A DNA stretch of 64,000 bases from Balanoglossus misakiensis. Taxonomy: Eukaryota; Animalia; Hemichordata. Numbering within the stretch: position 1 is the stretch's first letter; each line of letters opens with the position of its first letter. A program made the translations under genes and the position numbers. Under the pieces are notes generated by a model. It did no database searches. It was not told the DNA's origin and was given only the letters and a program-made list of their open reading frames with translations. The stretch lies in the NCBI GenBank assembly GCA_040954595.2, contig CM082595.2:7058193-7122192 (forward strand), given 5' to 3'. Shown here in pieces: positions 6,491 to 58,731 of this stretch.

Positions 6491-6641
6491 AAAAACCCCA
6501 GTAATACCAATAGGGCCCAAGCCTGCTGGGCTTGGGCCCTAAAAAAAGCCAGTAATACCAATAGGGCACAAGCCTGCTTGGCTTGTGCCCTAAAAACTCC
6601 AGTAAAAACAATAGGGCCCAAGCCTGCTGGGCTTGGGCCCT
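6491..6641. repeat. 3 x ~50-bp palindromic element terminus
   Basis: Same hairpin unit three times. The middle copy has compensating changes (gggcacaagc/gcttgtgccc). Confidence 0.9.
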
Positions 6642-6643
6642 AA

Positions 6644-30200: not shown

Positions 30201-31515
30201 GCTACCATCATACATTTTTTCCTAAAAATAATGGACCAAAGACTTATCCCTGAAACTCAGTTCAAGAATTGTTATGAAATGTCTACTGAGTCAAAAGTTA
30301 CAAGTAAAAGATTATTTTTGAACTGATTTCTTTGAATGTGTTACCATGGCAACATCAACGATAGTACATCTATTGAATGGTTAAATAAGATAGTCTTTCA
30401 TGTATATTATAGTAAAGCTGTCAAAAAGAGACAAAGTAAATTTCCTCCTAGCTATATTGCAGAGAAAAAGAAATAGTTCAAGAAACTCATGGTTACTCTG
30501 GTTGCCATGGTTATTTGTCACTGTAAACATTGTGTAGAAAAACTACCCCTTAGTAGTTCAGTTGTCATAGCAATGATTTGCTTCTTTTGTAATATGTTTT
30601 CTCTTGTTAAAATGAACAATAAAACACTAACTCTAGCATATTCCTAATGCATTTCAATACAGCATGTTTGACCTTTGACCTGTGTTTCACCTTACAGGTC
30701 ACTGGTCAATGAGGAAACTGGACGGCCAAAGTCCAAAGCCAGGACGAAAGTTTAATGAACCAACAGGTATGGTGTTCCATGCTGACAAACTGGTGGTGTG
30801 TGACTCAGGCAACAGGGTTGTACAGATACTGAATCAAGATTACACCTGTGACAAAGTCTTGGGAAGTTTTGATGGTCAGTTTGCGAAGCCATTCCGGCCA
30901 TGGGGTGTAGCTGTCTCCCATGACAACATCTACTTCATAAATGATGGTGGAAATTCTCAAATTGTTGTTTGTGATCAAAACAATAAAATTCTTAGAATAA
31001 TTACTCTACCTGCAGGCGTCGAAGTCTGGGGCATCACTCTACTGAATGGATTTGTTTTGGTCACTGAGGTCGCAGGTCATCGGCTACTCAAGTACACCCA
31101 AGATGATCAGTATGTTGCAGAGGTTGGTGGTTGGGGTGATGGCCAAACACAATTCGGTTTCCCATACTCTGTGGTGGTCAACAGTAAGAATGTCATCATG
31201 GTGTGTGACCGTTGGAATCACTGCATCAAGTGTTTTGATGCTGAATTGAAATTCTTGTATCAATTTGGTGTGAAAGGTAAAGGTCCTGGTCAGCTGTTGT
31301 ATCCAGACAGCATTGACGTCGATGACGACGATAATTTGTTTGTGTGTGATTATGAGAATGATAGGATTGTGAAATGGAGATTTGATGGAGAGTGGATCTG
31401 TCACTTATTTGAAGGTGAGGTGAGAGACCCGGATTTCCTTGCAGTCAGCGGTGACAGAATTGCTGTTGGAGAGGATGGCAGCGACCAAATCAAAGTATTT
31501 CACAAGCAGACATAA
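21677..31515 (+). CDS. Copy B: ~1807-aa multidomain protein (3 GT N-lobe-like repeats, GT4-type glycosyltransferase, TRADD-N-like, coiled coil, acidic linker, NHL propeller)
   Basis: Manual exon model 21677-24206, 24753-25217, 25472-25548, 25775-25853, 26118-26381, 26620-27387, 27541-27813, 28128-28277, 30698-31515. All introns are GT-AG and phases are compatible, summing to 5424 nt open frame. The ATG choice and the weak donor at 27814 are uncertain. Confidence 0.8.
24753..25217 (+). CDS. Copy B exon 2, TRADD-N-like domain
   Basis: SESLQITANMRRLYNLYRL...LAKALEPILMTDE...LQLTATYD resembles, from memory, the GSL.I.V...L..L..L...L...L.T.E pattern of TRADD-like N-terminal domains that accompany GT4 domains in invertebrates. 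Confidence 0.55.
26784..27053 (+). repeat. Coding 54-bp minisatellite x5 (QTESVENKRKLVGEITKL) in the coiled-coil exon 26620-27387
   Basis: cagactgagtcagttgagaataagagaaagctagttggagaaatcactaaactg repeated five times, nearly identical. Confidence 0.97.
30698..31515 (+). CDS. Copy B terminal exon: six-bladed NHL-repeat beta-propeller
   Basis: Repeated F..P.G/D-V/I-AV ... V.D..N.R/C-I/V blades, GDGQTQF and GPGQL..P motifs. Acceptor cttacag, stop TAA. Confidence 0.93.
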
Positions 31516-34333
31516 ACATCACCATGAAATGCATGTCAACACGACATCAAAAACAGTGAAATTTGGGAGAAAATTTAGAGGCTGCGTCGATAAATTTACG
31601 ATTGATCGCATGCCATGGCAACAAAGTTCAAACTGAACCAATGTCACTTTCACAATTTTTGGAGTTATTTTCCACATTTTGAAGTAAAATTCGGAACAGA
31701 AATTAATTGTAGGTGTAGTCGCTAATGTACTGAGTGGAGGCAAAATAAACTGAGGGAGTTTTGAGTAATTTTTGCAGTTTATTTTGAGGGATTTTGAGAC
31801 AAGACTGTTTGAAACTGAATGCAATCCGTCAACTTGGCATGTAAACAATCACAAATTGGGTTCTTTTTTCAAATTTGCAAAGACATTTTTGAAAGAAAAA
31901 TAGTTCAGTTTACAGTCGCTTCATGTAACGAGTATAAACAATCCAAATCTGAGTCGTTTTGGAATATTTTTACTCGTTTTTTTGATGAATTTTGACATGG
32001 AGGGGTCTGAAAATTATGATGTGAGGTCCATTTCCCATCAGATCTCCATTGCATCCAAAAGGATGAAGGCGATTCATCAATTTATGTGTGCAAAATAATT
32101 CTAAAAACTTACCTGTAAATCGCCTGATATATATTGTATTGTAATTTGTACATATTGCCATTCTGTAGTCCAAAATTGTGGTTATTTCAAATATATATGA
32201 ACAAGGGATGTGAACCATGTGAACGGCGAAGTTTTACCGCCATGATTTGCATATCCACTTTTGATTAATGGTGTAGAGGGCGCACTTAGAGCTAGATGAG
32301 ACTAGCGTGAAAAGTAACTTTGCAGTTCTATGTTAATCAGATATGTACAGAAAGTTTGTTTTTCATTTTATTTAGTCGATTTCAAGGAGTAAAATTTCGC
32401 TGCCTGGCTGACAAGCGTTAATACAGCCATCTGATTCAGAGGCAGCAACTGAAATATCGACAGTAGGGGGCGCTATGACCATTTTTGCTATCAGGCCGAC
32501 GACTCTGGCAGTTATGTTCTCGATCGTCCTGATGTTTTGAGGCCACTGTCCTTTTGCCCGAGAGAAATATGCAACTTTGGCAAGCAAAGATGACTTGCGC
32601 AGATTGTATGATACTCTAGCAAGCTTTCTTTGTTTTAGTTGATATTTTCGTAACTAAAATGTACATAGTGAGTAAACAATTAGTATAAAGTTGTTTATTG
32701 TGTTATTTTGAGTTTTTAATGCAAATAATCACATGCTGTTTGTATTTACTTTTTTTAAATTGGTTTAAACTTTAAATGTAGTTGAATGTTTAGCTGAGAA
32801 AGTGCATCTGTATATGGCACCCTGATTTCATCAATAATTTAATGGCTGACAGTCGTATTACTATTGTTAAGTCATTTTATTGAATGCAAGAATTTATGAT
32901 GGAATTGGACGTTTGTAACTAGCATGCGTCAGTTTGCAACATATATCTACATGTAATAAATGGTAATGTGATAAATTAAACACCTGTGTGTTTGATATGC
33001 TTGCATTCATCCCCCAAAAATCCTCCTGTGTAACCACATTCATGGATAGTACTGCAAAACAAGCTAACAGACACATCTAAACCATTTGCACACATACCCC
33101 ACACAGACATAAACACTCAGAAAAACATGTTCGGTTTAAAGTTTTATTACAAATGGTAGCAATGCTGGTGTCACCAGGTTACAGTAAATCAGAATAAAAC
33201 TCTCATCTGTCATTTCAAACAAAATTCTGAATTCAGAAACAGGAAAAGGAAGCTTTGCTGTATATTGTCTGCCATGTCAAAGGTCAAATGGAACTATCAT
33301 AGTATTATTCTGTCTGGTTGATACCATGGCAATCTTCGACTAAAAAAATGTCCAGTGTCAAACTACTAAGATCATGAGATGGTTTGAAGGTAGATGTAAA
33401 ACGGTGCTTGTGATTGGTTAAGATTGGTATAGATACACATTACAAGCCAATGAAAAGAACAGTAACATTCAATTGGTTTTATTGCAACAAACACTGGATA
33501 TATCTGTTTGCTTCTCACATTCCGGCAAAAATAACATGATAGCAGAAAAAAACATGGGCTCACACATTTGAAAGTTATTTTGAGAGTTTTAAATAAATTG
33601 AAATAATCCTATATCAAGAAAGTGTCATGTGATAAATAGTTTTGTTTATTTGATTTTCACATCATTATGCTGAATCTCAAGACAGAAAACTACAGGATTG
33701 GTTAAAGGGTCGGTAGCTATATGACCATTTGACGATTTTTTCACTATTTGGTCTGCGCAAAGACAATTTCTTGGTCTGCTTGTAAAACATTTTAAAAACG
33801 CCAAGTATTCACATTGTCAGCAAAGTAAGTATCATGCAAGTGCAATGATATCATTGAGATCTGAATTTTTGTCCAGGCTATTAAAATTCACCGTTGGGTA
33901 GGTGGCTGTGACTATTAGTGTGAATTCTGGACTTTGACTTTCAGTTTTGGTTGTTTTAAAATTTGCAGTTTCTAAGTTGATTCAAATGGCCGCATTATAA
34001 ACCCATATATATGTTTCCTCTTTTACTTGGAAATTAATTCCATTCTGAAATATTCTGGAAGAACTTTATTCTGATTTTATTTCTAACACAATATTAAAGA
34101 ATAATTCTCTTGTACACCTAAAGATTACTGTTTCTACAGATTTATTTTACAAAAAAATTCTTTGGAAGAAACAGATAAAAATATCTTTGAAGTTGTTTAA
34201 GACTTCCTTGTTTTCACCCACATTCAGTGGTCTTCCTTCCCCAATTAGGTATAATGGTATGTTCTGTTTATTTTAACAGGACAAGGTTATTCTGTATCAA
34301 GGGGTAGGCAGGGTGATTTCTGAGGGGTTGTCT

Positions 34334-37300
34334 TCACTGCTGTGGTGGAGGCATTCCAAACTGAAACGCAGTAGGCACGGCTGTCTGTGTAAATTGATAC
34401 CCCCAACTTCCTTGATTTTCTTAGACTCTGTCAAATAAACAAAAACAAATGCATTTTATTCTAAATTGCTTCTATTTGCTGAAAAAGTTTCAGATAATAT
34501 TTTTGCAACAAAATCTGTATAAAGGCATATGGGAAAAGAGTAACAACAAAACTGTTTTTATAAGATTTTTTAATGTTATGCGTCTGGATTTTGGCTCATA
34601 TGTTTGTTGTATTCAAACGAGAATGCCAACACAGGTCAAAGGTCATGAAAGTGATAGTACAAAACAATGGATTCGGACCAAACCATGGTGGGGAAAGGGG
34701 TAAACAGAGAAGGGTTTGAAAGAGGGTGATACAGTATCAGAAGGCATCACAAAACCTTACCTGCTAAAGCTTTCCTCTGATCGGCCAATTTCCCAATTTC
34801 TTGAATTTCCAATTGTTGTTCTGCAGTTAAACCACTTATTAAGGCGTTATACCAGCTGGGATCTTGCACTTGTAAACCTATTGTAGAAGAACAAATCATT
34901 GTTAATGACACAGTCCCCACTGGACCAATACACTATTCGAGGACTGACATCAGTTCAAGAACTTCAAAATGGCTCTGACAAGATTTCTCACAAAGCAGGC
35001 AAATTCATATGAATCTGAAGCTTATTTGGTACAGAAGATTATATGGCTGATGATAGTCAAGGAGTTAATGAACAAATCTGCTTGATTCACAATTCAACAA
35101 TTTTACATCCTGCCATTTTTTACCTTGTAAAACTTCTTTAAATACCATGTATTCATCGATTGGACAATCTTCATCATCAAGAGGCGTGTTGTAACTTTCC
35201 AGAGCAGTTTCTTCATAGCCTTCCTCATCATCGTCAAAATTCCTGTCACCACTCTGTTGCCAAGGAAACAATAATTCTTATGCCAAAATGTTACTTGTAA
35301 TTTTTCCTGTGTCAATTACTCACTGGAGAAATTGCAATCATAGTGGACACCGCCCTCTAGAGAATATACCAGCTTTATTTAAAAAAGGACCAAGTTTAAA
35401 GTTATCATTCCAGATGTGTTCAGACAGTTAGTACGAGCGCCCTCTAGAGGGAAGCAACTGACTCACCCTCTTCGCTAACATATCCATGTATTCCTGCGAC
35501 GTCTCGTCTACTTCATCTTCATCACTTTCTAAGACTTCTTCGTAATCTTCATCCTCATCTTCATCCTCGTCATCACTGTCTCCCTCCTCTGCCTGAGCCC
35601 TACCTGTCAATGTAATAAAGAGAATGATGTTACAAGTTTTGATTGTAACAAAATACTGTAAAACAGGAATTTTTTTACAGACTTCACGATCCAAAAAACC
35701 ACGAAAATAAAAAGTTTCATAAAACAGTTTTTGAAGATAACGATGCAGTTAGTGAATTACGAGAACGCAAAAATGAATCTCCTCTTAACTGTTGCCTCTT
35801 ATTGACATGTCGAAATTTCCTGGTTTACAGTATATATTATTTTGTGTACAATATATATTCAAGCAGAAAATGCCATACACGTTCAACTGTACAAAGCACA
35901 GTGAAATTGGATGTAGCAAATATGCATACTTACTTTCATAGGCTCTGTGAAGTCCTTTGAATATTAGCAAGAGTGCTGGCAGAAACTGAGATGCAAAGGA
36001 ATTGACAGTTTCTGGTCTCGATGGCAAACTCATCAATGTACAAAGTCCAAGTGCACAGATTTTACGATCATGTAAGCTACAAACAAATAATAATCATAAC
36101 ATACTTACATGCCATTCTAAAGTCCCAGTCACTAGTCAAATCATCAATTTTGTCCATTAATCAGTTTTCATTTCAGATCATATGGAGCCAGTCAATTTTT
36201 CAACATAAATAAATTATTTCAAGCAATAAAATGGTAACAATACTCATGTTTGTAAAATTAATATCGTTAGTGTTGGCCATCATGGTTCAACACTGGTTTC
36301 ATTATAAAATTTCTTTCATAGAACTGGTGAAATGACAAACAATGATATAAAGATAGTACTGAACTCACCCGAGAAAACAGTCAGTGTCATGGAACCACTG
36401 CTTGAGGAACTGTTCAGTGATAGATTGGTCTGAGTTTGGAAGCCTCATTTTTTCTAAAATTTCTAAAAGTAAGACTGGATTGTAATAGAGGGCAGCCACT
36501 GCGACTTGTAGACACATTGTTCTGAGTTCACTAATGTCTTGACTTCCCGCGTCAGTCGCTCTAAAACTAATTCTATGAAGGATGGGATTACCTGTCGGTG
36601 AAATGAGAAAAAATAGTTAGTTCTGATTTTACTGAAAAATCTCCTGTGGCAGAGATCTTAAATGGATCCACACCACCAGTCTGTGGAGAACAAAGTTCAA
36701 CTTGTTCCATACACCCTTTTCCCTAAGTCTCTAGTGACCCGAGCAGCCATCTTGAATATGAACTGAAAGCGAGGCTAATGGGGAAACCCCCCCTTGATGT
36801 GATTGGTCAAATTTTCCCCATTGGCCTCGATTGAGTTCAAATTCATAATGGCTGTGTTAGGGCACTAGACTTATGAAAAGGGTGTATCCATGTCAGCTTA
36901 CCTGATCTATGAGTCCTTTGTACTGTAATAAAATAACTTCTAACAACTTGGCAGCATGGCATTCAGAGTCCTCGCCCGCATCACCTTTGAAAATCTGCAG
37001 AAAAAAGGCAACAGTGCTTGAAAAACAAAGTATTATCCCCTTGGGATCTGCTTGGAACAAACCACTACTAGCTAAGACTTGTCACCAGCAAAGAAGGGTC
37101 TTGACAAAGGGAGGGGGGGGGGTTGCCTCATACAGGGTACTCACTCTTTTGCAGATATTGTAGATGACTTCAATGTGTTTCGCATCAGATATAAATGCCT
37201 GTGGATCCACTATGATGTAGTTGTGAAGAGCTGGCATCATTTCTACAGCAAACAAGAACCGAATATGTTCAAATAAATTTAAGACAGGTAAGATTTACAA

Positions 37301-39311
37301 TTTTAAGACCTCAGGAAATTTTTCGAGGATTTATTTTCTGAAAGATGACAACAGATTGTGTTGAAAGGGTGAATATCTTACATTAAGTTGAATGGATGAA
37401 CTTACCCAGGAAGAAATCAAAGCCGTCTTTCTGGAACATGTCGTACATCATGAAGAAAACTTGCCATAAAGGCCGTGAAATGTGACTACACGTAAGACTA
37501 AAGACCAATGACAAAACTTCCTCATAAAAATCTGCAAGACAAAAAAATCATACAAAAAATGTTATAGATGCGTTCAATTCGTCTTCTCTTTAAGAATATT
37601 GTAAGTTTAAAAATTTCGTATGTCATTCACTTGTCTGTCAGTTCCGAGTAAAGATTCTGGCGGTCAGGAATCAACAAACATTTTCTAATTTGCGGCAAAG
37701 GTTCACTTGAATTTTTCTTCTCCATTATTGGAAGCCTACTCACCCATCACATTTTGTTGTAATATTGTTCCTATAACACTCAAAACAATTTCCTCTATCT
37801 GCATCATAATCTGTGAAAATAAATGCACAAGAACTTAACAATTATGTTTTTTTAACAGGTCAATGAAAAAATCCCCATAATTATTAGAAGAAATGCCATC
37901 AAGAGGGATGATCATGGTTATATGTTGAAATTCAAAATGGCAACTTCAGTTGCCATAGTGATTTTCAAAATGGCTACCTTGAATATACTACATTGCTCCT
38001 GGTTCTGAGACAATCGCATTTGAAACACACATTGAATGGATTATTCTTATGAAATATGTTCAGATTTCTTAACAATGACAATTATTGTTACAATTATTAT
38101 CCATTTCAATAATTCACCTCTTTGTGATCCTCCATGACAGTAAGAATTGTCTCTATAGTGTTGAGAATTCCCATTGCCGTAATGGCCTTATCTTCAGTCT
38201 GGTCTTCTGCATCTACGACCTGGTTGAAGGTGACAGCCTGTTTAACCAACAAAAAAATGGTTATTGCATTATCACATGACACAGGCTGGCAAGACAAGAT
38301 GGCGCAGAATCAATATTCAGCAGAGTTTAAATGCAGCAGGAAAAGAAATGTGTAATTCGTTCCAGAAATCTTATAACTGGTTGTGTGGGTACACTACACA
38401 ACATTTTCAGCCAGATGTATCAAGAATTTGTTGCTCCATGAAATACCACCACCAAACTATCAAATTTACCGAATCCTACGACTTACCAAATTCCGAGTAA
38501 TTTCTACAGCTATTGGTATGATGTCATCACCATAGGTACAAATCAGTTTTTGCATCACATTGGTCAAATCATCGTTTTCTGTTTCTCTGATGACGTAGAG
38601 TAACTCTGGAAAACAAAAGAATATTTTCATGTTTAGTTTTTCAGTTTCTGAGGGCAATGATGCTATTATCTATGAAGGAAAATGTCGTTCTTTTGACAAA
38701 AATTTTCATGGTTGACATTTTATCATTATACAATAGCATATAAGTAGTCAACTCATTTTACGGCACTTTTGCTGTAGCGTTTTCAAATCCCAACATTTTC
38801 CACCACCATACGGAGCACACACATCAACAAATATTTCCCGCCAAACCTACCATGTATAATATCCTTCACATGTCCCTGTAAATATTCTTTGGCATCATCC
38901 TGGTTTGTGATGAGCATCTGTAGAGCGATGGCCGCCTCCACTTTCACTGGCATTTCTTTCTCTTCACACAGACATTTTCTGCTGAGTTCCAACGCTTGTA
39001 TCAAGTTCTTCTTATCTTTGTAGTTGATTTCGCTGAAGTAGTGCAGCACCCAGTTCGCCTGTGTGAAGCACGTCAGATAACGTGGCGTGAAATCAGGTCA
39101 ATAATCATTATCATACAAGAGAAACAATTACCAGGTCCAAGAAACAATAGATAATAACAATAATTGTATATGGTTGCTACAATGAAGGATCTGAAGCAAA
39201 ATATTACAGAATCGAGCCTACCCTTGCTCTCATGTAACCAAAGTCACTGTGGAATTCTGGGAAAATGTGTAACGTTAGCAACAGCTCCATCTGCTCTTTG
39301 TATTTCTTTTT
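34334..39311 (-). pseudogene. IPO7: Importin-7-like partial pseudogene, copy 2
   Basis: Same exon series from KKKYKEQMELL to the terminal exon ESKKIKEVG. N-terminal exons are absent. Frameshift after REVKT (~36534) and a 1-nt deletion in the poly-G of the last exon (~34400). Confidence 0.92.
36709..36887. mobile_element. Fold-back MITE, duplicate of 14604-14789 (third copy starts at 63867)
   Basis: Same inverted ends atacacccttttc / gaaaagggtgtat. Confidence 0.65.
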
Positions 39312-39774
39312 CTGTTGGCGGGAAAAAAAATATTTCAACTTTATTTGTGAAAATTACAGTTTAAAGACATTATATTAGAAAATTTATCATATTTATTATG
39401 TGCGATAATATTCAGTTCAGTCTCATCACATTTGCTGGTAGATTCTATCAAAACAGAACATGTAACTTTATTTTGAGCCACCGTTTCTAAAATATCATTC
39501 ATTCACTATATATCCACATGTAGAATAACATAAATGGTGTCTTGTATCAAACATTATTAATGGAAAAAGGGTAGGGAGAGAGAGACTTTGTCCCTTTAAT
39601 TGAATTCGCCTATATATCGGCAAACAGGCTCCCTCCCTTACAGTGAAGTGAACACCGTGAAGGTCTGAACCTAATGTACCATTCGGATGACGTCAGGTAA
39701 TGCTTCAGGTTAAACATATACCGATGGCACAATGAAAGAAAGAATAGACGTATATCATTTTCTTCTTCTTCAAG

Positions 39775-39929
39775 GTATGGACGATTGAAATCTATCTTCT
39801 CAGCTTTGCTTGTCCAATCCGTTTTTTGTTTTGTGGCGGCGCTGTCACCAAACCTTGTCATTTTTATGTTGTGTCAGTTCATCATCGGGTTCACCTATCC
39901 AGGAATCTTTATTGCAACGTTTGCATATG
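39775..39929 (+). pseudogene. Orphan SLC22-type exon, copy 2
   Basis: 155-nt exon, YGRLKSIFSALLVQSVFCFVAALSPNLVIFMLCQFIIGFTYPGIFIATFAY, with AG/GT flanks. Confidence 0.7.
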
Positions 39930-42230
39930 GTAAGAGAGTGCACGATAATACACCAAACAACAGAAATGGCAAAATTAAGGGACCTCCATGACCAAACTAT
40001 GGAGTCCTGACTAGACCAACTGATCTCAACTATTGTTTGTGGCTGTACATTAATTAAGACATAAACACTTTGTTTGTCATATTATACAAAGTAACAACCA
40101 CATTGTTTCTCAGAGTTTTAGACCAGAAATTGCCCCTAAATTATACTATTTTACTATTGGCTATCCATTCACCTTGATTTGAATAAAAAACTTCAATTTT
40201 GTGGACTGACATCATACATATTTTATGTACATACATACATACCAGTACATACATGTACATGTATACACACATGCCTGCAAGAACATGCACTCATACCATA
40301 CACAAATATACCGGTATACTGGTACATACACCATCAATCTTTTATTGGCAAATTACAATTAATCAGAAGCACCTACACTTGCTGGAAAATGTCTATGTTT
40401 ACAAAAATATACCGGTACTACATGATTCAATGCAAAATATAAGCTATAATACTATACTTGTTGGCATTTATTGGTATTTTTTGCTGTAAATTTGGAAATT
40501 AACAAGATTTTACTTTGTTAATAGTGAGACAGTTGAAGCTGACCTTATTTGACCTTCCCCTCATTACATAGGCTGTCAACAAATGTCAAAGTGAAACTGA
40601 AAAACAATTTCTACTTTAAGTTCAGAGCAGGCAACGATAAAAGTTTAAATCACTAAAGAATATCAAAAACATTTAGGTACTAATAAATCTTGAGTTCATG
40701 AAGCTGTAGGGCATTTGTTTCAAAGGTTTTTAGATTTTTAGAATAATACTGACATGTTTTAAATGGAGACTGGCAACTGAACTTTGACAGTGCCTGGATC
40801 TCCACTGTGTTGGGCCACTGTAAGTAAACTCTTTGTTTTGCACCTTCATGCAAATAGTTTGTTGTTTCTTTTGTTTTTTTGAAGATTTTCTGACCACAAA
40901 AGTCTGTTACAAATTTTACATAATTTGCTCAAATAACCTGCAAGGTTGAGGTGTATGTGTTATGAACAATGAAGTTGAAAATTACTACTTGAATCTTGAA
41001 TGAATACTTCTCTGACAAGGATCCAAAATATATGAATTCCATGTACAACTGGCTTTATCTGCAATCGACCGTATCTGACCTTTACCTCATATATCCAACT
41101 GTCCTGTTGACAAACATTAAATGGAAATCCAACCGAAAGAAATATATTTGAATTGAATAGAAGATGACAAAGTTCCAGTCACCAAAGAATATTTAAAACA
41201 TTTGATGATGTTTTAGTTAGTTGCAGTGAAACATTGTAAAAGTTAATAACTTCAATTACTGACATGTTCTAAATGGATGATGCAGGTGAACTTTGATAGA
41301 GTCCAGACTAGATGTACAACACAGGTATTTACTCAGATCACATGACAAGCGTGCTTGGTATATCGAGGTACACAAAATCTGACTCAGCAACTTTTTTGCC
41401 ATTTTTTCTGGGTGAGCATGTCACCTGCAGAGCTCTTGATACAGTTGTGTGCCTCAGGACAGAATTTCTACCTTGTGAAGGAATCAACTTATCTGTTACA
41501 ACACTAAGAGGTATGTTGCATTGAACTTGGTGATTTTCTGTCTTTTTCTTTCAGTCCTCAAACTCAAGCCACACCTTTTTAATTTTCATGTAACAGAAAC
41601 ACACCTTTAAAAATACTTATATTGGAAATAACTTAACAATTAAGCGTCCAAACTTTTCTTGGCTTTGAAAGATGACCAGAATATTGTGAATACCAATATA
41701 CTTGTATTAATTTACATGTGAATAACACCACTTATATCACATGTATAAGGATTGAAGCTATAATTTGTGAAGGAATATCATCCACTCTTTACAACCATTT
41801 TCATATGTACCGGTATGTTGTACTGAAACTGATGATTTATTATCTTGTGTTTTAACTGAAGATATTGAATATATATAGATGACATTGTAAATGGGTGGTG
41901 GCAAAGAGATTCCAAACTCTGATATCACATCTACAACACAGGTATTGTGACAAGTACTGAGCAGCTCGTACGTCTTGATAGGAACCAAACTCTGGGATTT
42001 CTCCTCTTTTTGCCAGTGGGAGCTACTCTAGCTTTGTATGGATTGAATGGATTGAAACTCTAACTTCTGAAGGAATCAACCTCTCTGTTACAACATTACT
42101 ATAGGTATGTTAAATGTAAAGAAGTTTGTGATTTATTGTCTTGAAATTCTGTCAGTCCTCAAACTCAACGACTTCTTCATATAACAGAAACACACCCTAA
42201 AAAAACAATTCTATCGAAAATAAGTCATTA

Positions 42231-48186: not shown

Positions 48187-51100
48187 GTATAGGACAATTT
48201 GAAATCTTACTGTTTGATCTGGGATGCAGAGTCATGTTATTTGGTTTCTGGGAGACAATTGACTTGAACCGCTGTAATCATCCTGTCTTATACCCTTCTC
48301 GAGTTGTGCACATGGTAAGATGGGAGACCTATTTGATGATAACATTGTATTCTATTTTTTTGTAGTCATCACCTCTGTTCACAATTAATGTGTCAGCAAG
48401 AGAATCAGATTGACCAATTTGTCATGTAAACTACAGTGACACAATATTGCGTAGTATACGTACTTTTACACACTTCAGATGAAATGATTCTGTGGTGCTT
48501 ATCTGAAAATAATCATTTGTATTCTTTTCCGCCCGAGTAAAATAATTGAATCATAGAACAAAATAATAACAACAAAAATACCTGGTATCTAAATGTTTAT
48601 TTAAATATTTTTGTTGTTCTTGTGGAAATGTCATTTCGCTATTTCGCAAAGTATCTATTTTGCAATGTATCATAAGCCCTTTAATGTTGTCTCTGAATTA
48701 ATATATTTTTTTTCCTACTTCTCATCATCACCAGATCATCATGCCGACACAACAATTACAATCCATGTCGGACTGGATGACAATGTCTACCACAAGCATC
48801 TAGCAGAAAATGAGGGCCAGAATGAGGAAAGGCAACAGGCAGCATCTACCGGTACAGATTGGAACAACTGCAAACAACAGTTGAAGAGAAGAGCATCTGA
48901 TGTGGTATCCAACAGTGATGACACTGAGAAAGTCAAGAAAGCCTGCACTGAGAATTTGGGTAAAGTGGAAATAACCAGTATGAAATCAGAGTCTCTGCAA
49001 ATCACAGTCAACATGCGTAGACTTTATAATCTCTACAGATTGCGGGGAAGCTGTCTTGAAGATTCAAGAAGTTTAGCCAAGGCATTAGAACCAATCTTGA
49101 TGACAGATGAAATGACAGAGGCCAACACAGCTGGAATACCACTACAGTTGACAGCAACATATGACCAAACCAGGTTTGATGAACTGGAACTATTCTTTCT
49201 GAACAGTAAGTTTTAATAGTTTATCAGAGAATACTATAAAACTCTCAGACTATTGATCAAACCAGAAAAAAAAAAATTCAGGACAATTTACTATGTATCG
49301 ATTGTTATAACAGCACTTGATCGGTTAAATGCTCTAAAAGAGACACACATCACTCTGAAATCATACCCCCGGTAGATGATAGAATTATTCAACAGAAGAA
49401 CTTGATTTGATAACGATTTCACAGTACCGGTAATTTACTTTCCTCAATGTATCTTTCAGGAGATGGTGGAGGAATAGGACCAGTGGTATGTGATGACAGC
49501 ATTGATGAGGAATATGTCAATGAGATACTGGCCGAGGTATGCTTTGTAATTTTAACCCTTAAAGTGCCACACCTGATCAATTGCAAGCCAAGCTGCTCTT
49601 GTATAATTGTCTTCAAGAGCAATATCAGCTGCACAGGTCAATACCGGTTTACCCGTTGCGAATCTGGTGATCGACTGTGTGGTATTTGAGTGATGGGTAT
49701 TATAATATCATGTGGTCATGTTTTTTATATATAGTTGTCAAATAATAAAAGTGTTCATTTCTTCCAATTTCAGATTGACAGAACACACCTGACTTTGCAA
49801 CGGGAGTTAACAGAAAAAGATTCTGATACTGAACACACTGGCCTGAAACAAAGTGAGTGATTTTACCATCATTTCAGTCAATGACAACAAAATGCACATT
49901 TAGGCTTCATAAATATTCAAAGATTCGAAAAATAGTGGCATATATCCAAATTTTCCTTGACAATACACATTTGACTTGGCGTTGCACAATATACTCTGAC
50001 TTTTTTACCACATGAACAATGTACTACATGTAGGAAGGTTTTTGTTTTGGCCATAAAAATTGATATCTCCTTAAAATAAATTAGGATTGTTAACTTGTAA
50101 TGATGGAAGAAACAATTGTCAGCCAACATTAACATTCTACCATACATTGCACAGTATACCATTTGTTCTTTCTGCATCACCAGTTTGATTTGATGCTTGA
50201 AAGATTGATGTCACTTGTGCCAAGATTAAAAACCTGATTTTGTTTGTATTTTGCAGGTCAGATATTATCCAGGTTGTTGTTCCTTGAGATTGATCCAATA
50301 CGAGAAATCCAGAAGTCAGCTGACAAATATGCACCACTGATACTCAACAGTGAGCAGTGTAAAAGACAGAAAGGAAGACAGTGTGACATCATACAACTTA
50401 CAGTGAAAATGACCGAGAAAGTTCAGCATATCCTATCTCACAGACCTCAAATCTTAGAGTTACTGGGTGTTAGTAGGTATCTTATGACTGACACAGAAAG
50501 GGTGGATTTCAGTGACTCAGGTAAAATACAGGGATTTTCTAACTGACAGATATGATGAAAACAGCACATTTGCTTTACAAGAAGTATATTTGCTGCACTT
50601 TGTAACGAAAAGTAAATGGGAACATACACAGCTATGCACTGGTGTGCAACATGAATGAAACTTTACAATAGTTATGCAATAATATCATTCTCTATGTGTG
50701 ATAATTATGTAACTTAATAACCTTTGTGCACTGAGTGTAACAGTCAGCACATTTTTACAACAGATGCAATGTATTCTATGGATCAAGGTAGTATGGGAAA
50801 ATGTGTGCTCAAGATTAATGATATGCATACATGTATATTACAGTACTTGTCCAAGGTTACTTGATATCAATGACAGATTTATCTACATAATCCATTTCAG
50901 AGTTGGAAGAAGAAATCATACAACATGGCAGACCAATTCATCCCATACCAGCTGAATCTATCAGCTTACAAGCAAAAAGCTTACTGCCCTTTGAAGCTAG
51001 TGCAAAGCAGCTCAAAGAACTAAAACAACTTTTGGATGGGGCCCTGATAGAGAAGTCTAAAATTCAGACTGAGTCAGCTGAGAATACGAGAAAGCTGGTT

Positions 51101-54100
51101 GGAGAAATAACTAAACTGCAGACTGAGTCAGTTGAGAATAAGAGAAAGCTAGTTGGAGAAATCACTAAACTGCAGACCGAGTCAGCTGAGAATACGAGAA
51201 AGCTGGTTGGAGAAATAACTAAACTGCAGACTGAGTCAGTTGAGAATAAGAGAAAGCTAGTTGGAGAAATCACTAAACTGCAGACCGAGTCAGTTGAGAA
51301 TAAGAGAAAGCTAGTTGGAGAAATCACTAAACTGCAGACAGAGAAAATGATTCTAGAGAATCAGTTGAAAGAAGCACTTCAGGAAAAGTCACTCTTAGAA
51401 GAGCAGTACAAACAGAAACTTGCAAGTGATGAGAAAGTAGCTGCCACACAACTTATGGATGTCATTTCCCTGAAGCAAAGATTGAAAGAATTAGACCCTA
51501 GAAACATCCAAGAGTTGGAATCTAAACTTGAACAACAAGAACAAACCATAACTGAGCTAAAGTCAAAATTATCTAAAATTCAGGATGAGCAATCTGACAC
51601 TGCAGAGCTGCAACTGAAAACTCTTCAACTGGAAGAAGATGCAACATTGGAAACTGAACAAGGTGAGATTGATATGAATCTGCTTCGATTATTCCTGCAT
51701 CAAGAAACCCTTGGTCAAATAAAATCTTCCAGCTCACATAGATTATAACAAATGCAAGTTTTCTTTGTTGTAAGAATTACCCAAGTACTTAACATTTCAT
51801 TTCAAATATTTGTAGGCAAACTCACACCATCTGATATGCCTCTCAAGAAAGATGACACGGGAGACATATCACCTGTAACCATGGCTACAAAAGATGAAGA
51901 TGAGCCTGTGAAACCAGCAGCTGTGCAACCTGAGATGGCATCAGAAGAAACAGGAGCAGAGAAAGCCAGACATTCACAACAGGAGACAATGGGAAAAGAA
52001 GACACTGAAGCTGTGACCAAGATGACGGAAGGAGATGGAACTGAGACTGAGCAAACAAAATCAAAACAATTTAAGACAAAGGAAAAAGGTGCACCAGTAA
52101 AACCTGTCAATAACAAACTTAGAAAGTTGGAACTACATTTACATCAATCTGATGTTGGAAAGCATGGTATAGTATACTAGTATTCTTGATAGAAAAAAAT
52201 CAGTCACAGATATCCAATGAGATGAATAAACATTCAATGTTGGTTCAATCTGATGTTGGAAAGCAGTACCCGGTATATTCTTGACAGAGGAAAATGAGAT
52301 ATCCCATAAGAAATAAGAAAACATTCCATTAAATATCAGCCAAACTTAATCAGATTAATTGACAGCACTATATTTTCATTGTTTGATCACTTTCTTTTGC
52401 AGAAGAAAAGCAATCCAAAGGTGTCATCAGAAAGATAAGGAGATTTTTTGGTGGAAGTAAAGAAACTGCTGGTGATTCAGGGACTACAGGAAGTAAAGAA
52501 ATATCTGAGGATACAAAGAGAGCCAGTGTTTCAGCAGAACCTTCTAAAACAGGTATGTGCATTTCATCTCAGTGTTGGAAAATAACAGTTGAATACATGT
52601 GTTGATACTAAGGGACCAGTTGATTCAAAACTTCAAGTAAATATTGAATCATTGGTTGCCAGACTTCTACCGGTACTACCAAACTGCATTGTGTGTAAAT
52701 GTATAACATAAGAAAACTTGATGACATAACATTTATGGCACTTACCAGAAACCTTGACATCACAAAGCACATGAGGCAAGATGAGAATAGAGGTCTGGTC
52801 ACCAACAATTCAGAGAGTTCAAAATCATTATAAGAAACTTTTCACTTGATCAAACATAAACAAAGTAACGTCAGAAGATACCAACCTTGTCAAATTTGAA
52901 TTCAATAATTCTTTGCAAGAATAGATTGGCTGTCTGGTGATTGATGAATACTTTTGTCTGTAAAATATAAAAATCAAAATGCGTGCAGATATTGACTCAA
53001 TATCAATATCATGTGGATTAGATTAATTTTGCTATGATCAATTCTGCAAGAGCATTTGATGGAGCATCAAGGTGTACCAGAATAGGAAAAGAAAAGCTAT
53101 GAGCCAATTTGTGTGTAAATGTCCAATGTACAAGTAGGCTGATTATTTGCAGATACAGACAGCATAAAGCAATATAAAATACCGGTACACCAGTGGTTCA
53201 GCCTTTGTTTTGATTGGTATGGTTGAATCCATACACAAGAAAAAGGGGTGAAAGGTTCAGTCTTTGTTACAGTGGCCAGAATAAAACAACTGTGGTCCAG
53301 GGTGAAAATGCTCAATTTCTACAATTTCAACCACTAGCTACAATCATTCAATTTCTTCATTTGACTTTGGAATTGTCATATGTAGATATTCCACAATATC
53401 AAGAAACTTTAATTTTGTTATGATTATAAATAATCAAAAAAGGTAATTCAAATTAGGAACTTGCCAATTTTTTATCCAAGTGACAATTTGGAACAGCCAG
53501 TGGTGTTGAAACAGACTATTTATCATGACTCATCCTAAGTAACTGCAGGTTTTCCATCTCTCAGATCATCTGAAATGATGTCACTATATAAGTAAGTGGT
53601 TAGGGTGTACTCTTGCAAAAAAAGATATCACTATTTCCAACCATGCATTTTACTTTCCAATAAATTCTCTAAAGTTAGAAAGGTTTACACCAATAATTTC
53701 TCAAGGGTTTATTCACAAAAATATTCACCAGGTCAAAGAAAGTACACGCCCTCTCAGCTAAGGAGTAGATAATTCTTCTCTGTTCACCAATATGACAATT
53801 ACTGATTGAAAAGCAGAGACCATCTCTGGTTGGCTGGGAAAAGAAACAAAATCTTTGGCACAACAACATTACAGATAGTACATAAAGTTAGAAATACTTT
53901 GTATTATAATAGTCTGTCAATAAAATGACAGATAGGATAGCTTTTTACTTTATATTGGTACTGAAAAGCTACAAGTATAAGGTAGGCAATGATCCTTGAG
54001 ACATTGTTGAAGAATTTTTATGTAAGACCTACTAATTCCAAAATTACAAGGAAAAGATTATTTCTGTACTTATCTGTTAGGATGTGTTACCATGACAACA

Positions 54101-57100
54101 ATACTGCCACTAAATCCATTGAGCAGTTGAATAGGAACATTTTTTATGGGTTACAAAGACCATAAATAAAGTAGACAGAATTTAAAGAATCTTGAACTGT
54201 CAGTGAATTTTCTTGAGGGTCTTTGTTCTAATCATCCTACAGTGCAAAATTACGAGATGCTCGAGTCAGCAAAAAGTGATTTGGAGAAAGCTTATGATTA
54301 TATTACAGAAGGAGCGGTCGTAAGATCCAGGATTAATTGGTACGAGAAAGGTGAAAAATGTAACAAGTTCTTTTTAAGTTTGGAAAAGGTAAATAAACGC
54401 AACTCGAGTATCAGCAATTTGAAGAAAGATGAGTATACAATTATAGACAACCCAAAGAATATTTTGTGTGAAATTAAGCAGTTTTATGCCAAGCTTTACT
54501 CAAGGTGCGCCACAAACTCCAACGATGTGCATTATTTCCTGGATGCAAATTTACCAATGTTGTCAGAGAATGATAAAGTTTTGTGTGAGGGTCCTTTGAC
54601 CCCTGGGGAAGTTTTCTCGGTTCTTCTCTCCCTTCCAGACAACAAAAGCCCCGGCAATGATGGCCTTACAAAAGATTTTTACGTGGCGTTTTGGCCACAG
54701 GTGGGGAATTTAGTTTTGAATTCTCTTAATTATGGTTACAGAACGGGGGAATTTTCAAATTCACAGAAACAGAGTGTTATAACTCTGATTGATAAACCTG
54801 GGAAGGATCAACTCTATCTGAAAAATTGGAGACCAATCTCCCTTATGAATGTTGACATGAAGCTTGCTTCAAAATGCCTTGTTAAACGTATTGAAAAAGT
54901 TTTGCCCTGCTTAATTGGTGACTCCCAAGCGGCCTTTGTCCGGGGGAAAAACATTGGTGATTATATCTGTTTGATAGATGAGATTTTTCATTACACCTGT
55001 AATGCTGATATTCCAGCAATTTTATTAGCCATAGATTTTGAAAAAGCTTTTGACACTGTGAGTTGGGATTATCTCTACAATACGTTGTCTTCCTTTAATT
55101 TTGGAGTGTCCTTCATCAACTGGGTTAAAACTTTATATTTTAACATCGAAAGCACTGTAATGAACAATGGGTTTGGTACTGGCTATTTTAAGCTTGAGAA
55201 GGGAGTGCGCCAAGGTGACCCTTTGTCACCTATGTTATTTATTCTGGTTTTAGAAACACTCTTGCATTCAATAAGAAATAACCGACAGATTAGTGGTATA
55301 AATATTGGCAGTGTTGAAATTAAGGAGTCGGCGTTCGCCGACGATATGACCTGTTTTTTATCAAATGAAAACTCTGTTAGAATTGTTTTTGAAATGTTAA
55401 CTTCCTTTTATAATGCTTCTGGTTTGAAAGTCAACAAAGATAAGACAGAAGCTGTTTGGCTTGGGAAATGGAGACTTCGAAAAGATGAGGCGTTTGGGGT
55501 AAAGTGGCCCACCCCTACTATCAAGATTGTGGGGATTCATTTTTCGTATAATGAAAAAATTGCCCAGGAAAAAAATATTGTTACCCCAGTCGAAAATCTA
55601 AAAAAGGTCCTCAATATGTGGAAAACTAGGAATTTGACCATCATTGGGAAAGTTCAAGTTATTAAGTCATTGGCAATTTCCAAATTAACATATGTGCTTA
55701 CACATGTAATTTTTCCTAATGAAGTAATAGGTCGGGTTCATAAGTTAATTTATAATTTTCTCTGGAATGGACAAGACCGGGTTTGCAGGAATATAATGAT
55801 AGGGGAGGTGGGCCAAGGAGGCTTAAAAATGCCCAATTTAGATGTGATGATAAAAACAAAGCAAGTTTTACTGATTAAACGCCTGTTGAATGAGGAATGT
55901 AAACACCCTTGGAAACACTTTGTCTTACACAGTTTAGAGAAAGTCGGTGGAAAATTACTTTTTAAATGTAACTTCCGCACCAATCTTTTGCCTGTGCAAG
56001 TCTCCAGTTTTATAAATAATTGTCTTGTCACATGGTCAGAAATCAACATTATTCCAAATACTACAGACCAGGTGATTTGGAACAACAGAAATGTCCTTGT
56101 TGGAGGAAAGTCGGTTTTTTATAAGGCTTTTTCTGACGCTGGCTTTAATTTCATCTCTGACATGTTTACAGGTTTTAATAGAGTATCATGGTCTGTATTT
56201 GAGCAGAAAGGCCTGAATTTAAATCAGAAATTAAAGTGGTTAGGATTGACACTTTCTGTTCCAAACAAGTTAAAAAATTGTACCAAAGCACATAGTGCAC
56301 ATGAGCTTTGTATTTCATTAAATGGCACAATCTGTAATTTAGACACTTTAACGAAAAAGAGTTTGAAATGTAATTTGAACGACCGTATTATAGAGACTCC
56401 AAAAAGTCAAGCAACACTGGAAAAAATGTTGAATATATTTAATCTAAACTGGGAAAGAATGTATGACTTCACTTACAAGTTATCAATACATTGTAAAGCT
56501 AGAGCTTTTCAATTTAAATTACTTCACAATATTTTGTATACAAACAAACAGCTAAACAGGTACAATCCACAGAGGTTTCCAACTGCTCTTTGTGATTTAT
56601 GTAAAGTGGAAACAGAGTCCATCGATCATTTATTTCATAGTTGCAATTGTACTACTGCTCTCTGGAGAGACCTACTGTTTACGTTGGGTATCCCTCTTAA
56701 ATTGAAAAAACTACCATCAGTGTTATGTATGGTTTTGGGTGACCCAAACGAGACTTTTATAGTCAATTTCATAGCAATGCAAGTTAGAATGTACATTTAC
56801 TACTGTAAATTAAATAATAGAATTCCGAATATCACTGGGTTTATTGGTCAGCTCAAAAACATACATGAAATTGCACTTAAGATTGCAACTGCAAATCATA
56901 AAATGTATTTTCATCTTAAAAAATGGTCGTCACTAATGAGGTATATAACAAACTGAGAATACCAGATTGTATTGTTTTTTCTTTTTTCTCTTCTTTTCAT
57001 TAAGTTATGCTTCCAAAAAAAAAAAATAATTGTCATTTTTTTTTTTTTTCAAAAAATCTACTTATGTATCAAAATGACTGTTTGTCTTCCCAATAAAAAG

Positions 57101-58731
57101 TATGAAATAAAAAAAAAAAAAAAAAAAAAAAAAAAGACCATAAATAAAGTGATAATTTCAGGTAATATTTCTGCTACTTGTTTTCAAAAATAGAATTATT
57201 AACTGATATTAACATTTTGTCCAGTTTCCATGGTTACTCGGAATTTGAAAATGTGTACATATAGAGTACTTGGGCAGAAGTATATCATCGCAATAACTCG
57301 CTAAATTTGTAAAAAAAAAGGTTTAAAGTTAAATTAAAACAGTAACTTTAGCACATTGCCAATGTTTTACAAAATACATTGAGGTTCAGTTGTCATGGTT
57401 ACCAGTGAATAATGCTACCATCATACATTTTTCCTAAAAATAATGAACCAAAGAATTATCCCTGAAACTCAGTTCAAGAATTGTTATGAAATGTCTACTG
57501 AGTCAAAAGTTACAAGTAAAAGATTATTTTTGAACTGATTTCTTTGAATGTGTTACCATGGCAACATCAACGATAGTACATCTATTGAATGGTTAAATAA
57601 GATAGTCTTTCATGTATATTATAGTAAAGCTGTCAAAAAGGGACAAAGTAAATTTCCTCCTAGCTATATTGCAGAGAAAAAGAAATAGTTCAAGAAACTC
57701 ATGGTTACTCTGGTTGCCATGGTTATTTGTCACTGTAAACATTGTGTAGAAAAACTACCCCTTAGTAGTTCAGTTGTCATAGCAATGATTTGTTTCTTTT
57801 GTAATATGTTTTCTCTTGTTAAAATGAACAATAAAACACTAACTCTAGCATATTCCTAATGCATTTCAATACAGCAATACAGTTTGACCTTTGACCTGTG
57901 TTTCACCTTACAGGTCACTGGTCAATGAGGACACTGGACGGCCAAAGTCCAAAGCCAGGACGAAAGTTTAATGGACCAAGAGGTATGGTGTTCCATGCTG
58001 ACAAACTGGTGGTGTGTGACTCAGGCAACAGGGTTGTACAGATACTGAATCAAGATTACACCTGTGACAAAGTCTTGGGAAGTTTTGATGGTCAGTTTGC
58101 AAAGCCATTCCAGCCACAGGATGTAGCTGTCTCCCATGACAACATCTACTTCATAAATGATGGTGGAAATTCTCAAATTGTTGTTTGTGATCAAAACAAT
58201 AAAATTCTTAGAATAATTACTCTACCTGCAGGCGTCAATATCTGGGGCATCACTCTACTGAATGGATTTGTTTTGGTCACTGAGGTCGAAGGTCATCGGC
58301 TACTCAAGTACACCCAAGATGGTCAGTATGTTGCAGAGGTTGGTGGTTGGGGTGATGGCCAAACACAATTCCGTTCCCCATACTCTGTGGTGGTCAACAG
58401 TAAGAATGTCATCATGGTGTCTGACAGTGAAAATCACTGCATCAAGTGTTTTGATGCTGAATTGAAATTCTTGTATCAATTTGGTGTGGAAGGTGAAGGT
58501 CCTGGTCAGCTGAGGCGTCCAGACAGCATTGACGTCGATGACGACGATAATTTGTTTGTGTGTGATGATGGGAATGCTAGGATTGTGAAATGGAGATTTG
58601 ATGGAGAGTGGATCTGTGACTTATTTGAATGGAAGGTGGGATACCCTCAGTTCCTTGCAGTCAGCGGTGACAGAATTGCTGTTGGAGAGGTTGGCAGCGA
58701 CCAAATCAAAGTATTCTACAAGCAGACATAA
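45657..58731 (+). CDS. Copy C: ~1807-aa paralogue of the GT4-TRADD-N-coiled coil-NHL gene
   Basis: Exons 45657-48186, 48735-49205, 49460-49536, 49774-49852, 50257-50520, 50901-51662, 51816-52088, 52403-52552, 57914-58731. GT-AG introns, 5424 nt open frame. Coding indels versus copy B are all multiples of 3. Confidence 0.8.
48735..49205 (+). CDS. Copy C exon 2, TRADD-N-like domain
   Basis: Paralogous to 24753-25217 with a 6-nt in-frame insertion. Confidence 0.55.
51065..51334 (+). repeat. Coding 54-bp minisatellite x5 with two unit variants
   Basis: Units in order SAENTRK, SVENKRK, SAENTRK, SVENKRK, SVENKRK. Confidence 0.97.
54173..56956 (+). CDS. LINE ORF2 reverse transcriptase with C-terminal zinc finger; endonuclease domain lost by 5' truncation
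   Basis: KSPGNDG, NWRPISL, IDFEKAFD, GVRQGDPLSP, FADD, GGLKMP, CDLC..ESIDHLFHSC. The frame is open from the insertion edge to TGA at 56956. Confidence 0.95.
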   Translation, partial: RQNLKNLELSVNFLEGLCSNHPTVQNYEMLESAKSDLEKAYDYITEGAVVRSRINWYEKGEKCNKFFLSLEKVNKRNSSISNLKKDEYTIIDNPKNILCEIKQFYAKLYSRCATNSNDVHYFLDANLPMLSENDKVLCEGPLTPGEVFSVLLSLPDNKSPGNDGLTKDFYVAFWPQVGNLVLNSLNYGYRTGEFSNSQKQSVITLIDKPGKDQLYLKNWRPISLMNVDMKLASKCLVKRIEKVLPCLIGDSQAAFVRGKNIGDYICLIDEIFHYTCNADIPAILLAIDFEKAFDTVSWDYLYNTLSSFNFGVSFINWVKTLYFNIESTVMNNGFGTGYFKLEKGVRQGDPLSPMLFILVLETLLHSIRNNRQISGINIGSVEIKESAFADDMTCFLSNENSVRIVFEMLTSFYNASGLKVNKDKTEAVWLGKWRLRKDEAFGVKWPTPTIKIVGIHFSYNEKIAQEKNIVTPVENLKKVLNMWKTRNLTIIGKVQVIKSLAISKLTYVLTHVIFPNEVIGRVHKLIYNFLWNGQDRVCRNIMIGEVGQGGLKMPNLDVMIKTKQVLLIKRLLNEECKHPWKHFVLHSLEKVGGKLLFKCNFRTNLLPVQVSSFINNCLVTWSEINIIPNTTDQVIWNNRNVLVGGKSVFYKAFSDAGFNFISDMFTGFNRVSWSVFEQKGLNLNQKLKWLGLTLSVPNKLKNCTKAHSAHELCISLNGTICNLDTLTKKSLKCNLNDRIIETPKSQATLEKMLNIFNLNWERMYDFTYKLSIHCKARAFQFKLLHNILYTNKQLNRYNPQRFPTALCDLCKVETESIDHLFHSCNCTTALWRDLLFTLGIPLKLKKLPSVLCMVLGDPNETFIVNFIAMQVRMYIYYCKLNNRIPNITGFIGQLKNIHEIALKIATANHKMYFHLKKWSSLMRYITN
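54173..57132 (+). mobile_element. 5'-truncated non-LTR retrotransposon (L1/Tx1 clade) in the last intron of copy C
   Basis: 18-bp TSD aaagaccataaataaagt at 54155-54172 and 57133-57150. Poly(A) tail preceded by aataaa. Empty sites at ~8741 and ~29921 in the other units. Confidence 0.96.
57914..58731 (+). CDS. Copy C terminal exon: NHL beta-propeller
   Basis: Same length and blade motifs as 30698-31515, intact frame. Confidence 0.93.

Follow-up and report, generated by a model that had tools for sequence, protein, structure and literature searches.

Results

A Tandem Array of Genes Ending in an NHL Exon

The window analyzed here, a stretch of 64,000 nucleotides from the hemichordate Balanoglossus misakiensis (GenBank assembly GCA_040954595.2, contig CM082595.2, positions 7,058,193 to 7,122,192 of the forward strand), contains three copies, A, B, and C, of a gene whose last exon encodes a propeller of NHL repeats. 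The divergence among these three NHL exons of 271 codons each, located at 9524-10341 (A), 30698-31515 (B), and 57914-58731 (C), is the subject of this work. Models for genes B (21650-31515) and C (45630-58731), both on the plus strand, were predicted from splice signals and homology with GT-AG introns; they consist of seven exons with open frames of 1,790 amino acids, and all introns are in phase 1. In both, three degenerate GT4 N-terminal repeats and a GT4-conflict core come first; a ferredoxin-like and a small domain are next, and a predicted coiled coil plus linker connect these with the NHL propeller at the end. Copy A (6646-10341, plus strand) consists of remnants of exons 5 and 6 and an NHL exon whose codon 16 (9571-9573) is a premature TGA, a stop that goes unmentioned in the initial annotation of this DNA, and is likely a pseudogene.

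In gene B, exon 1 (21650-24206) encodes the GT4 repeats and the GT4-conflict core (PF20706, E 2e-41, three stretches) and exon 2 (24753-25217) the ferredoxin-like domain with a helical insert, modeled by AlphaFold2 (AF2) with a mean predicted confidence (pLDDT) of 88. Exon 3 (26118-26381) encodes a small family-conserved domain with 39-49% identity in tblastn to relatives from Ptychodera flava, for which a Pfam scan gives nothing above cut-off, and exon 4 (26620-27387), in which a 54-nt unit is repeated 5.3 times in tandem, a predicted coiled coil. Exons 5 (27541-27891) and 6 (28128-28277), spanning 27541-28277, encode a low-complexity linker with a short basic stretch, and exon 7 (30698-31515) the six-bladed NHL propeller with its variable top face. 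In gene C, exons 1 to 3 (45630-48186, 48735-49205, and 50257-50520) and 4 to 6 (50901-51662, 51816-52166, and 52403-52552) have the same architecture as in B in an open frame, and exon 7 (57914-58731) encodes a propeller whose top face is unlike that of B. PF20706 scores 142 and 136 bits in the two GT4 exons (cut-off 26), and the NHL repeats (PF01436) score 57-73 bits in A, B, and C (cut-off 20). No RING or B-box is found by Pfam in the scanned exons of B and C, whose predicted models begin with the GT4 repeats, nor is there a Pfam match to a NACHT NTPase or HET domain in these exons or in six P. flava relatives. A hydropathy scan reveals no convincing membrane helix in proteins of the B/C type (highest 19-residue value 1.6), which by their sequence look cytosolic. 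The short basic, possibly amphipathic stretch encoded by exon 6 just before the propeller, similar to ones in P0002 and P0006, could be a membrane or localization signal.

Differences Among the NHL Exons Concentrate on One Face

Between B and C, the NHL exons differ at 41 nucleotides, which amount to 30 amino acid differences and 3 purely silent codons, exactly the figures that had been estimated by the initial annotation; A and B differ by 38 amino acids versus 4 silent codons, and A and C by 34 versus 1. As had also been observed, several codons differ at two or three bases, 7 of them between B and C and 7-15 across the pairs. Intron 6 differs between B and C at 29 of 2263 sites (1.3%), the 3' flank at 22 of 760 (2.9%), and flanking non-coding DNA of A is 1.2-2.4% diverged from B or C, so that the near identity claimed for the flanking introns translates into 1-3% non-coding divergence. 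Silent divergence of the NHL exon is 2.6-3.8%. The whole-exon dN/dS of about 2.2-2.9 is only marginally significant (P 0.018-0.054; one-sided Fisher P = 0.054 for B/C), and because this excess is modest, the strong signal is site-specific and the location of the changes is decisive.

According to the AF2 model (pLDDT 94), the NHL exon encodes a six-bladed propeller of 24 strands whose first strand closes blade 6 and which is closest to the NHL domains of TRIM2, TRIM3, and Thin (TM 0.87-0.89). The top face of NHL domains is formed by the b-c and d-a loops (PMC4015489); here it was taken to consist of these loops plus the first three residues of each strand a, as read from the secondary-structure string of the model. 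With codon 16 (stop in A) excluded from three-way counts, residues that vary among A, B, and C amount to 34 of 101 on the top face and to 10 of 169 elsewhere (P 4e-9), with 1 of 45 in the bottom loops, and 25 of the 30 differences between B and C lie on one face. Thus 34 of the 44 variable residues map to the surface that the initial annotation had named as ligand-binding, and they are enriched on one face rather than scattered over the structure. All blade motifs that it had quoted are present; the changes do cluster blade by blade, but about five positions in two loops are involved per blade instead of the two that had been proposed. When the RNA-contact residues listed for LIN-41 (PMC5908797) are mapped by spacing on the blades of TRIM71, where they correspond to the two residues that precede the blade proline, the one that follows it, and the two that follow the blade aspartate, the 30 equivalent positions (hereafter contact positions) are variable in 23 cases, compared to 21 of the 240 other positions. 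Their distribution is uneven, with 14 of 15 variable in blades 4-6 and 9 of 15 in blades 1-3, and the b-c loop of blade 2 is invariant. In exon 7 of B, the main variable codon clusters are located at 30754-30765, 30805-30810, 30892-30903, 31018-31029, 31069-31074, 31156-31167, 31210-31215, 31297-31308, 31351-31356, 31423-31434, and 31474-31479, to which codons 145, 192, and 194 have to be added.

Selection on the Top Face of the Propeller

At the contact codons, 25-35 of 90 nucleotides differ per pair (28-39%), whereas the rest of the exon shows 16-23 differences in 720 nucleotides (2-3%); at 3% divergence only 2.7 differences would be expected at the contact codons (Poisson P <= 3e-16). Contact positions thus change at more than ten times the intronic rate, and divergence in the remainder of the exon is intron-like. 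The proportion of nonsynonymous differences (pN) is 0.34-0.47 at contact codons, where that of synonymous differences (pS) is 0.05-0.11, and pN drops to 0.05-0.08 on the remaining top face and to 0.012-0.020 off the top face. Codon positions 1, 2, and 3 of the contact codons are variable 16, 18, and 7 times. In a maximum likelihood analysis (own code, not PAML; star tree, 270 codons, F3x4, site calls by naive empirical Bayes), model M2a is preferred over M1a with a likelihood ratio test (LRT) statistic of 102 and a roughly estimated omega of about 76 on 9% of the sites, and when double and triple hits are allowed, the LRT statistic is still 52 with omega about 48 on 12% of the sites. The strong diversifying selection on a binding face that had been suggested initially is therefore borne out by site models with omega far above 1, by the face test, and by a contact pN that greatly exceeds pS, and we are highly confident that the feature is real and that the top face of the NHL propeller is under diversifying selection.

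Variation at Matching Positions in Another Sample and in Ptychodera flava

Further sequences were obtained as contigs from three DNA runs of one sample from one study, with contigs less than 86% alike left out. These contigs carry fixed differences from all three window copies, and the sample is probably another individual or a close relative. Between 31140 and 31380 (79 codons), all 14 substitution rows at the 4% threshold (at least 4%) fall into 6 of the 15 codons that are variable in the window. None of the 14 is silent on the background of B, 8 match the base of A or C, 6 are new alleles, and a single variant is carried by up to 23 contigs. Coverage collapses at codons 153-156, 171, and 218-219, which are consequently under-sampled. 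Since the derived states of B necessarily lie at window-variable codons, part of this overlap is forced; for the four codons with new alleles alone, P is 0.0009.

Homologs of the NHL exon come mainly from P. flava, which accounts for the 52 best of the 58 longer matches and for 27 of the 28 matches of similar length, with at most 67% identity. Of 86 protein matches found, 58 cover the NHL domain, 54 of these are unique, and 53 P. flava rows entered an entropy count, a set that may include isoforms and haplotype duplicates. In these 53 domains, contact positions have an entropy of 2.49 bits, compared with 1.15 bits for the bottom loops (P 6e-9) and 1.40 bits for the remaining top loops, and they make up 17 of the 30 columns that vary most. 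The contact enrichment recurs in most close P. flava pairs, for example with 17 of 30 versus 13 of 237. Together with the variants of the other sample, these many relatives confirm the larger paralogue pool that the initial annotation had presumed. A profile search over 1.84 billion representatives is dominated by long multi-propeller proteins.

That the pattern is an assembly artefact, or that alleles were set in tandem, is scarcely credible. The copies are indeed about 98% alike outside the exons, but there are three of them with distinct junctions and one private insertion with target duplication, 8 of the 14 variant rows in the other sample match the base of A or C, and errors would neither keep the frame nor follow blade geometry. 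Assembly error is also unlikely because the same positions vary in the other sample and in the 53 P. flava relatives.

Origin of the Variation

Of 18 fourfold-degenerate sites beside contact codons, a single one varies (P 0.001 against 40% variable sites, 0.10 against 20%). A Sawyer-type runs test over 7,238 aligned columns, of which 250 are polymorphic, finds no tract common to two of the three copies, and odd-one-out counts outside the NHL exon are balanced (60, 57, and 59 for A, B, and C). The short conversion tracts that had been proposed to feed NHL variation therefore receive little support, and a search for mosaic tracts common to two copies was negative. Weak hints of conversion in the NHL exon are one 22-nt run with five changes specific to C (uncorrected P = 0.005) and silent sites that diverge by 3-6% across the remaining top face versus 1-2% elsewhere (no significance test); conversion in very short tracts or from almost identical donors would hardly be visible. 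Taken together, quiet fourfold sites, spared third positions, and the lack of a common tract are best explained by selected point mutation in a duplicating array.

The GT4 exon differs in this respect. Each gene has three tandem degenerate GT4 repeats (21650-22930 in B, 45630-46915 in C), and at the first 39 informative sites repeats 1 and 3 cluster according to position, after which 19 consecutive sites (46 columns) cluster them according to gene. Intragenic gene conversion is evident from this tract of about 46 nt, which is common to repeats 1 and 3 within each gene and alters one surface motif in both repeats together. Over the whole GT4 exon, silent divergence between B and C is 12.6% with omega 0.43. 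In the GT4 core (22930-24206 versus 46915-48186), silent divergence of 9.7%, several-fold above the intronic level, at an omega of 0.42 suggests exchange with a more diverged paralogue, mostly limited to the exon. Intron 3 of B and C initially scored 38 of 178 differences, but re-alignment with its flanks disclosed a large indel and an only moderately raised divergence. The region that reaches from the last part of exon 3 across intron 3 into the first part of exon 4 (26300-26700 versus 50440-50980) is more diverged than other introns and is possibly a further conversion tract.

Two explanations without selected point mutation have to be weighed against these data. In the first, no selection would be involved, and the excess in relaxed copies would stem from mutational hot spots, from mutations that hit several bases at once, or from patchwork conversion with diverged paralogues as donors. 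The broken copy A, a framework pN close to pS, the 7-15 codons per pair with two or three base differences, the conversion active in the GT4 exon, and the 22-nt run in C are in line with it. However, the LRT statistic of 52 persists with multi-hit rates, fourfold sites beside the hot codons are quiet and third positions spared, the GT4 exon, in which conversion occurs, has an omega of 0.43, i.e., the opposite signature, and the pattern recurs blade by blade and in P. flava, so that this explanation is largely refuted and retains a small probability. In the second, mutagenesis would be programmed and templated, either of the adenine type known from diversity-generating retroelements or as directed micro-conversion from pseudogene donors such as A. 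Ten three-state nucleotides in the NHL exon versus 2 in about 6,400 columns outside, as well as the presence of a pseudogene copy and a reverse transcriptase (RT) in the window, would agree with such a mechanism. Self-BLAST finds no template repeat within the window, variable contact nucleotides include A in only 25 of 41 cases, which means no adenine bias, and the RT belongs to an intronic retrotransposon inserted in C only; we thus judge templated mutagenesis very improbable.

Genomic Context of the Array

The tandem duplication extends from 7009 to 64000 (no strand assigned) in units of about 21-24 kb that are 94-98% identical by self-BLAST, with unit A at 7009-20824, unit B at 20829-42227, and unit C from 44827 to the window end. 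In each of the three units, one NHL exon is accompanied, on the minus strand, by the 3' portion of an importin-7-like gene (importin-7 match E 1e-21); these parts lie at 11200-17800, 32370-39100, and 59500-64000. An MFS-transporter-like exon is situated near a unit end at 39701-39991 on the plus strand. Both kinds of pieces are probably passengers of the duplication; the importin-7-like copy of unit C extends past the window edge and may be the intact gene.

Copy A begins abruptly within exon 5, directly behind a repeat array. This nested tandem array occupies positions 1-6647, is built of units of about 1.4 kb with 238-bp subunits and 50-bp palindromic repeats, and adjoins the middle of exon 5 of copy A. 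At the B/C junction (42230-44825), an element of about 2.6 kb whose termini are long inverted repeats (about 255 bp, 85%) is likely a DNA transposon derivative. Intron 6 of C harbors a 5'-truncated non-LTR (long terminal repeat) retrotransposon (54173-57132, plus strand) with RT, zf-RVT, and poly(A), which is found in copy C only and is bordered by an 18-nt target duplication at 54155 and 57133; it is a young insertion with an open RT/zf-RVT frame of 928 amino acids.

GT4 Heads, TRIM Heads, and a Candidate TRADD-N Domain

In the GT4 domain, 23 of 25 aligned rows retain a distal glutamate together with an aspartate that precedes it by seven residues, and comparison of the GT4 core with the PDB by sequence gives no real match to a solved structure. 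The model of exon 2 aligns with the TRADD-N structure 1f2h over 110 residues (Z 5.8, root-mean-square deviation 4.2), tied at the top with a transposase (Z 5.9), and Foldseek relates it to 1f3v (E 0.29, TM 0.41). The domain lacks a Pfam match, and ESM Atlas gave nothing usable; judged from its model, it is probably a TRADD-N domain.

Among the 58 longer matches, 20 combine GT4 with NHL, and 12 from P. flava combine RING and/or B-box with NHL. In a tree of 29 labeled rows from which 30 variable columns had been removed, a TRIM protein and a GT4 protein pair at support 97/92, and a TRIM-only clade is rejected (approximately unbiased test, P 0.013). This interleaving of TRIM and GT4 proteins, together with the location of the NHL domain on a single terminal exon in phase 1, suggests that the propeller has been exchanged between GT4 and TRIM heads. 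One P. flava member (P0031) carries a death effector domain before GT4-NHL, a link to death-domain signaling.

Discussion

We propose that B and C are young paralogues of a large family in which the top face of the NHL propeller is under selection, and that the intact copies function as intracellular sensor-effectors against invaders, a reading to which we assign a probability of about 0.6. Taken by itself, a role as immune sensor, for which known systems provide the analogy, appears reasonably likely. Each top face would bind a different, fast-changing invader molecule, the coiled coil would cluster the sensors, and a TRADD-N-like switch would release the GT4 domain, which would glycosylate either the molecule captured from the invader or a target in the host. 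The most likely source of new faces is selected point mutation in a duplicating array that evolves by birth and death, with conversion as a secondary shuffler. The full chain from sensor via switch to glycosyltransferase is a plausible proposal.

Several observations speak against parts of this reading. The omega values are imprecise as they were obtained from three window sequences only and depend on few silent changes, copy A is broken, and the non-top framework has a pN about equal to pS, so that purifying selection between the copies is not demonstrable. The 30 contact positions were picked after the initial annotation had indicated these loops and hence not blindly, which does not affect the face test and the site models as both are independent of this set. 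In P. flava, the closest pair shows no enrichment at contact positions (2 of 30 versus 11 of 238), and the contact set is mildly basic with a mean net charge of +2.3, which would suit an RNA ligand. The resemblance of exon 2 to TRADD-N is borderline and below the level at which the comparison tool is considered reliable. The acidic motif of the GT4 domain has the form acid-x6-Glu and is one residue shorter than E-x7-E, which we take to be the donor-binding motif of GT4 enzymes. Finally, the architectures in P. flava are database gene predictions, which may fuse neighboring genes.

With regard to the ligand, the same selection could act on recognition of RNA from viruses or mobile elements, each face reading one motif as in Brat and LIN-41. 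The variable positions do coincide with those at which LIN-41 contacts RNA, the NHL-like domain of TRIM56 binds viral RNA, and the P. flava charge would be compatible with it. However, LIN-41 and Brat require a basic top surface (PMC5908797, PMC4015489), and a residue count reveals no conserved basic surface of this kind in the window copies, whose contact positions are variable: the net charge of the contact set is +3 in A, -4 in B, and 0 in C, with 3 basic, 7 acidic, and 8 aromatic residues in B and 4 of each in C. An RNA ligand thus seems unlikely, and the analogy with LIN-41 indicates the location of the surface only, not its ligand. A protein ligand is somewhat more likely, to judge from the composition of the faces: aromatic residues account for about 20%, glycine is abundant in the window copies, and the charge is mixed, unlike in the basic cavity of LIN-41.

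A further alternative is that the faces read polymorphic host proteins, as in allorecognition, guarding, or germline conflict. In HNWD receptors, the WD40 propellers, which read HET-C, likewise have few selected top-face codons (PMC12222747, PMC4986451), and proteins of the B/C type with their low hydropathy maximum of 1.6 look cytosolic. A multigene array with many paralogues in P. flava fits a repertoire better than an allelic locus, and no co-evolving partner gene is seen within the window, so that we consider surveillance of host proteins to be quite unlikely. Returning to sensor-effectors against invaders, one may speculate that acorn worms possess a germline-encoded intracellular repertoire in which the hypervariable NHL exon is a paratope swapped between heads, the target being ubiquitinated by TRIM versions or neutralized through glycosylation by GT4 versions; at present, this extension is tentative and rather doubtful.

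Most of what is known about NHL domains concerns developmental regulators, in which they are conserved modules that bind RNA or partners. Here, in an invertebrate deuterostome, such a surface behaves in the manner of an antigen-binding site and is coupled to a proposed glycosyltransferase effector. B and C constitute a natural matched pair on one scaffold with which ligand specificity is directly testable, and the scaffold represents a naturally diversified propeller binder. The family offers a handle on the diversity of cytosolic recognition in long-lived marine invertebrates without adaptive immunity, and if the proposed mechanism is true, targeted glycosylation would be an animal immune effector. 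In the literature searched, no tested function in animals was found for a GT4-conflict effector, and full-text searches of openly accessible articles yielded no account of GT4-NHL proteins as a hemichordate family, nor any of selection acting on the top face of NHL domains.

Comparison With Known Systems

A close parallel in pattern is provided by the HNWD receptors of Podospora anserina (het-d, het-e, het-r), in which few codons per WD40 blade are under diversifying selection (PMC12222747, PMC4986451). Like these, the proteins described here have a propeller, apparently cytosolic, behind an effector head, a near-constant framework, and diversifying selection at few top-face codons per blade. 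HNWD receptors differ in that their propeller is of the WD40 instead of the NHL type and is linked to a NACHT NTPase and a HET effector. In addition, their blades are 80-100% identical within a gene and evolve in concert, whereas diversification here occurs between gene copies, and self-BLAST and Tandem Repeats Finder detect no blade-to-blade repeat within the NHL exon.

With the GT4-conflict proteins of Kaur et al. (2021, PMC8195603), proposed there to be anti-invader effectors, the window genes share PF20706, followed here by the probable TRADD-N domain. The pairing of GT4 with TRADD-N is reported from cnidarians, cephalochordates, and hemichordates, and the same study describes hemichordate GT4-TRADD-N-LRR proteins and DED-TRADD-N-WD40 proteins of amphioxus with variable propellers. 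The sensor after GT4-TRADD-N is there an LRR domain, and here it is NHL. The main text of that article does not mention NHL, none of the 11 Saccoglossus GT4 entries among the mentions listed in its supplement 6 has a C-terminal propeller, and no codon-level selection analysis was found in the parts consulted.

Members of the TRIM-NHL group (LIN-41/TRIM71, Brat, TRIM2/3, TRIM32, TRIM56, and Thin) have the same six-bladed fold and use the same surface positions, and P. flava possesses true TRIM versions of the same NHL clade. They differ by RING and B-box, which the models of B and C lack, and by a face that here is not consistently basic. In TRIM32 and TRIM56, the pathogen molecules bound through the NHL domain are a bacterial effector and viral RNA or protein (PMC10989757, PMC13236048). 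The contact residues of LIN-41 are conserved across species (PMC5908797), whereas the equivalent positions are the most variable ones here.

In their mode of evolution, the window genes resemble arrays of the B30.2-containing TRIM5 and finTRIM proteins and plant NLRs with their LRRs, in which intracellular sensors are likewise arranged in tandem, selection is focused on the surface used for binding, and birth-and-death evolution leaves pseudogenes. These systems employ another binding fold, and their effector is an E3 ligase or a TIR or CC domain, not a glycosyltransferase. Should variable NHL faces prove common among marine invertebrates, what sets the acorn worm genes apart would be the GT4 head and the suggested swapping between this and TRIM heads.

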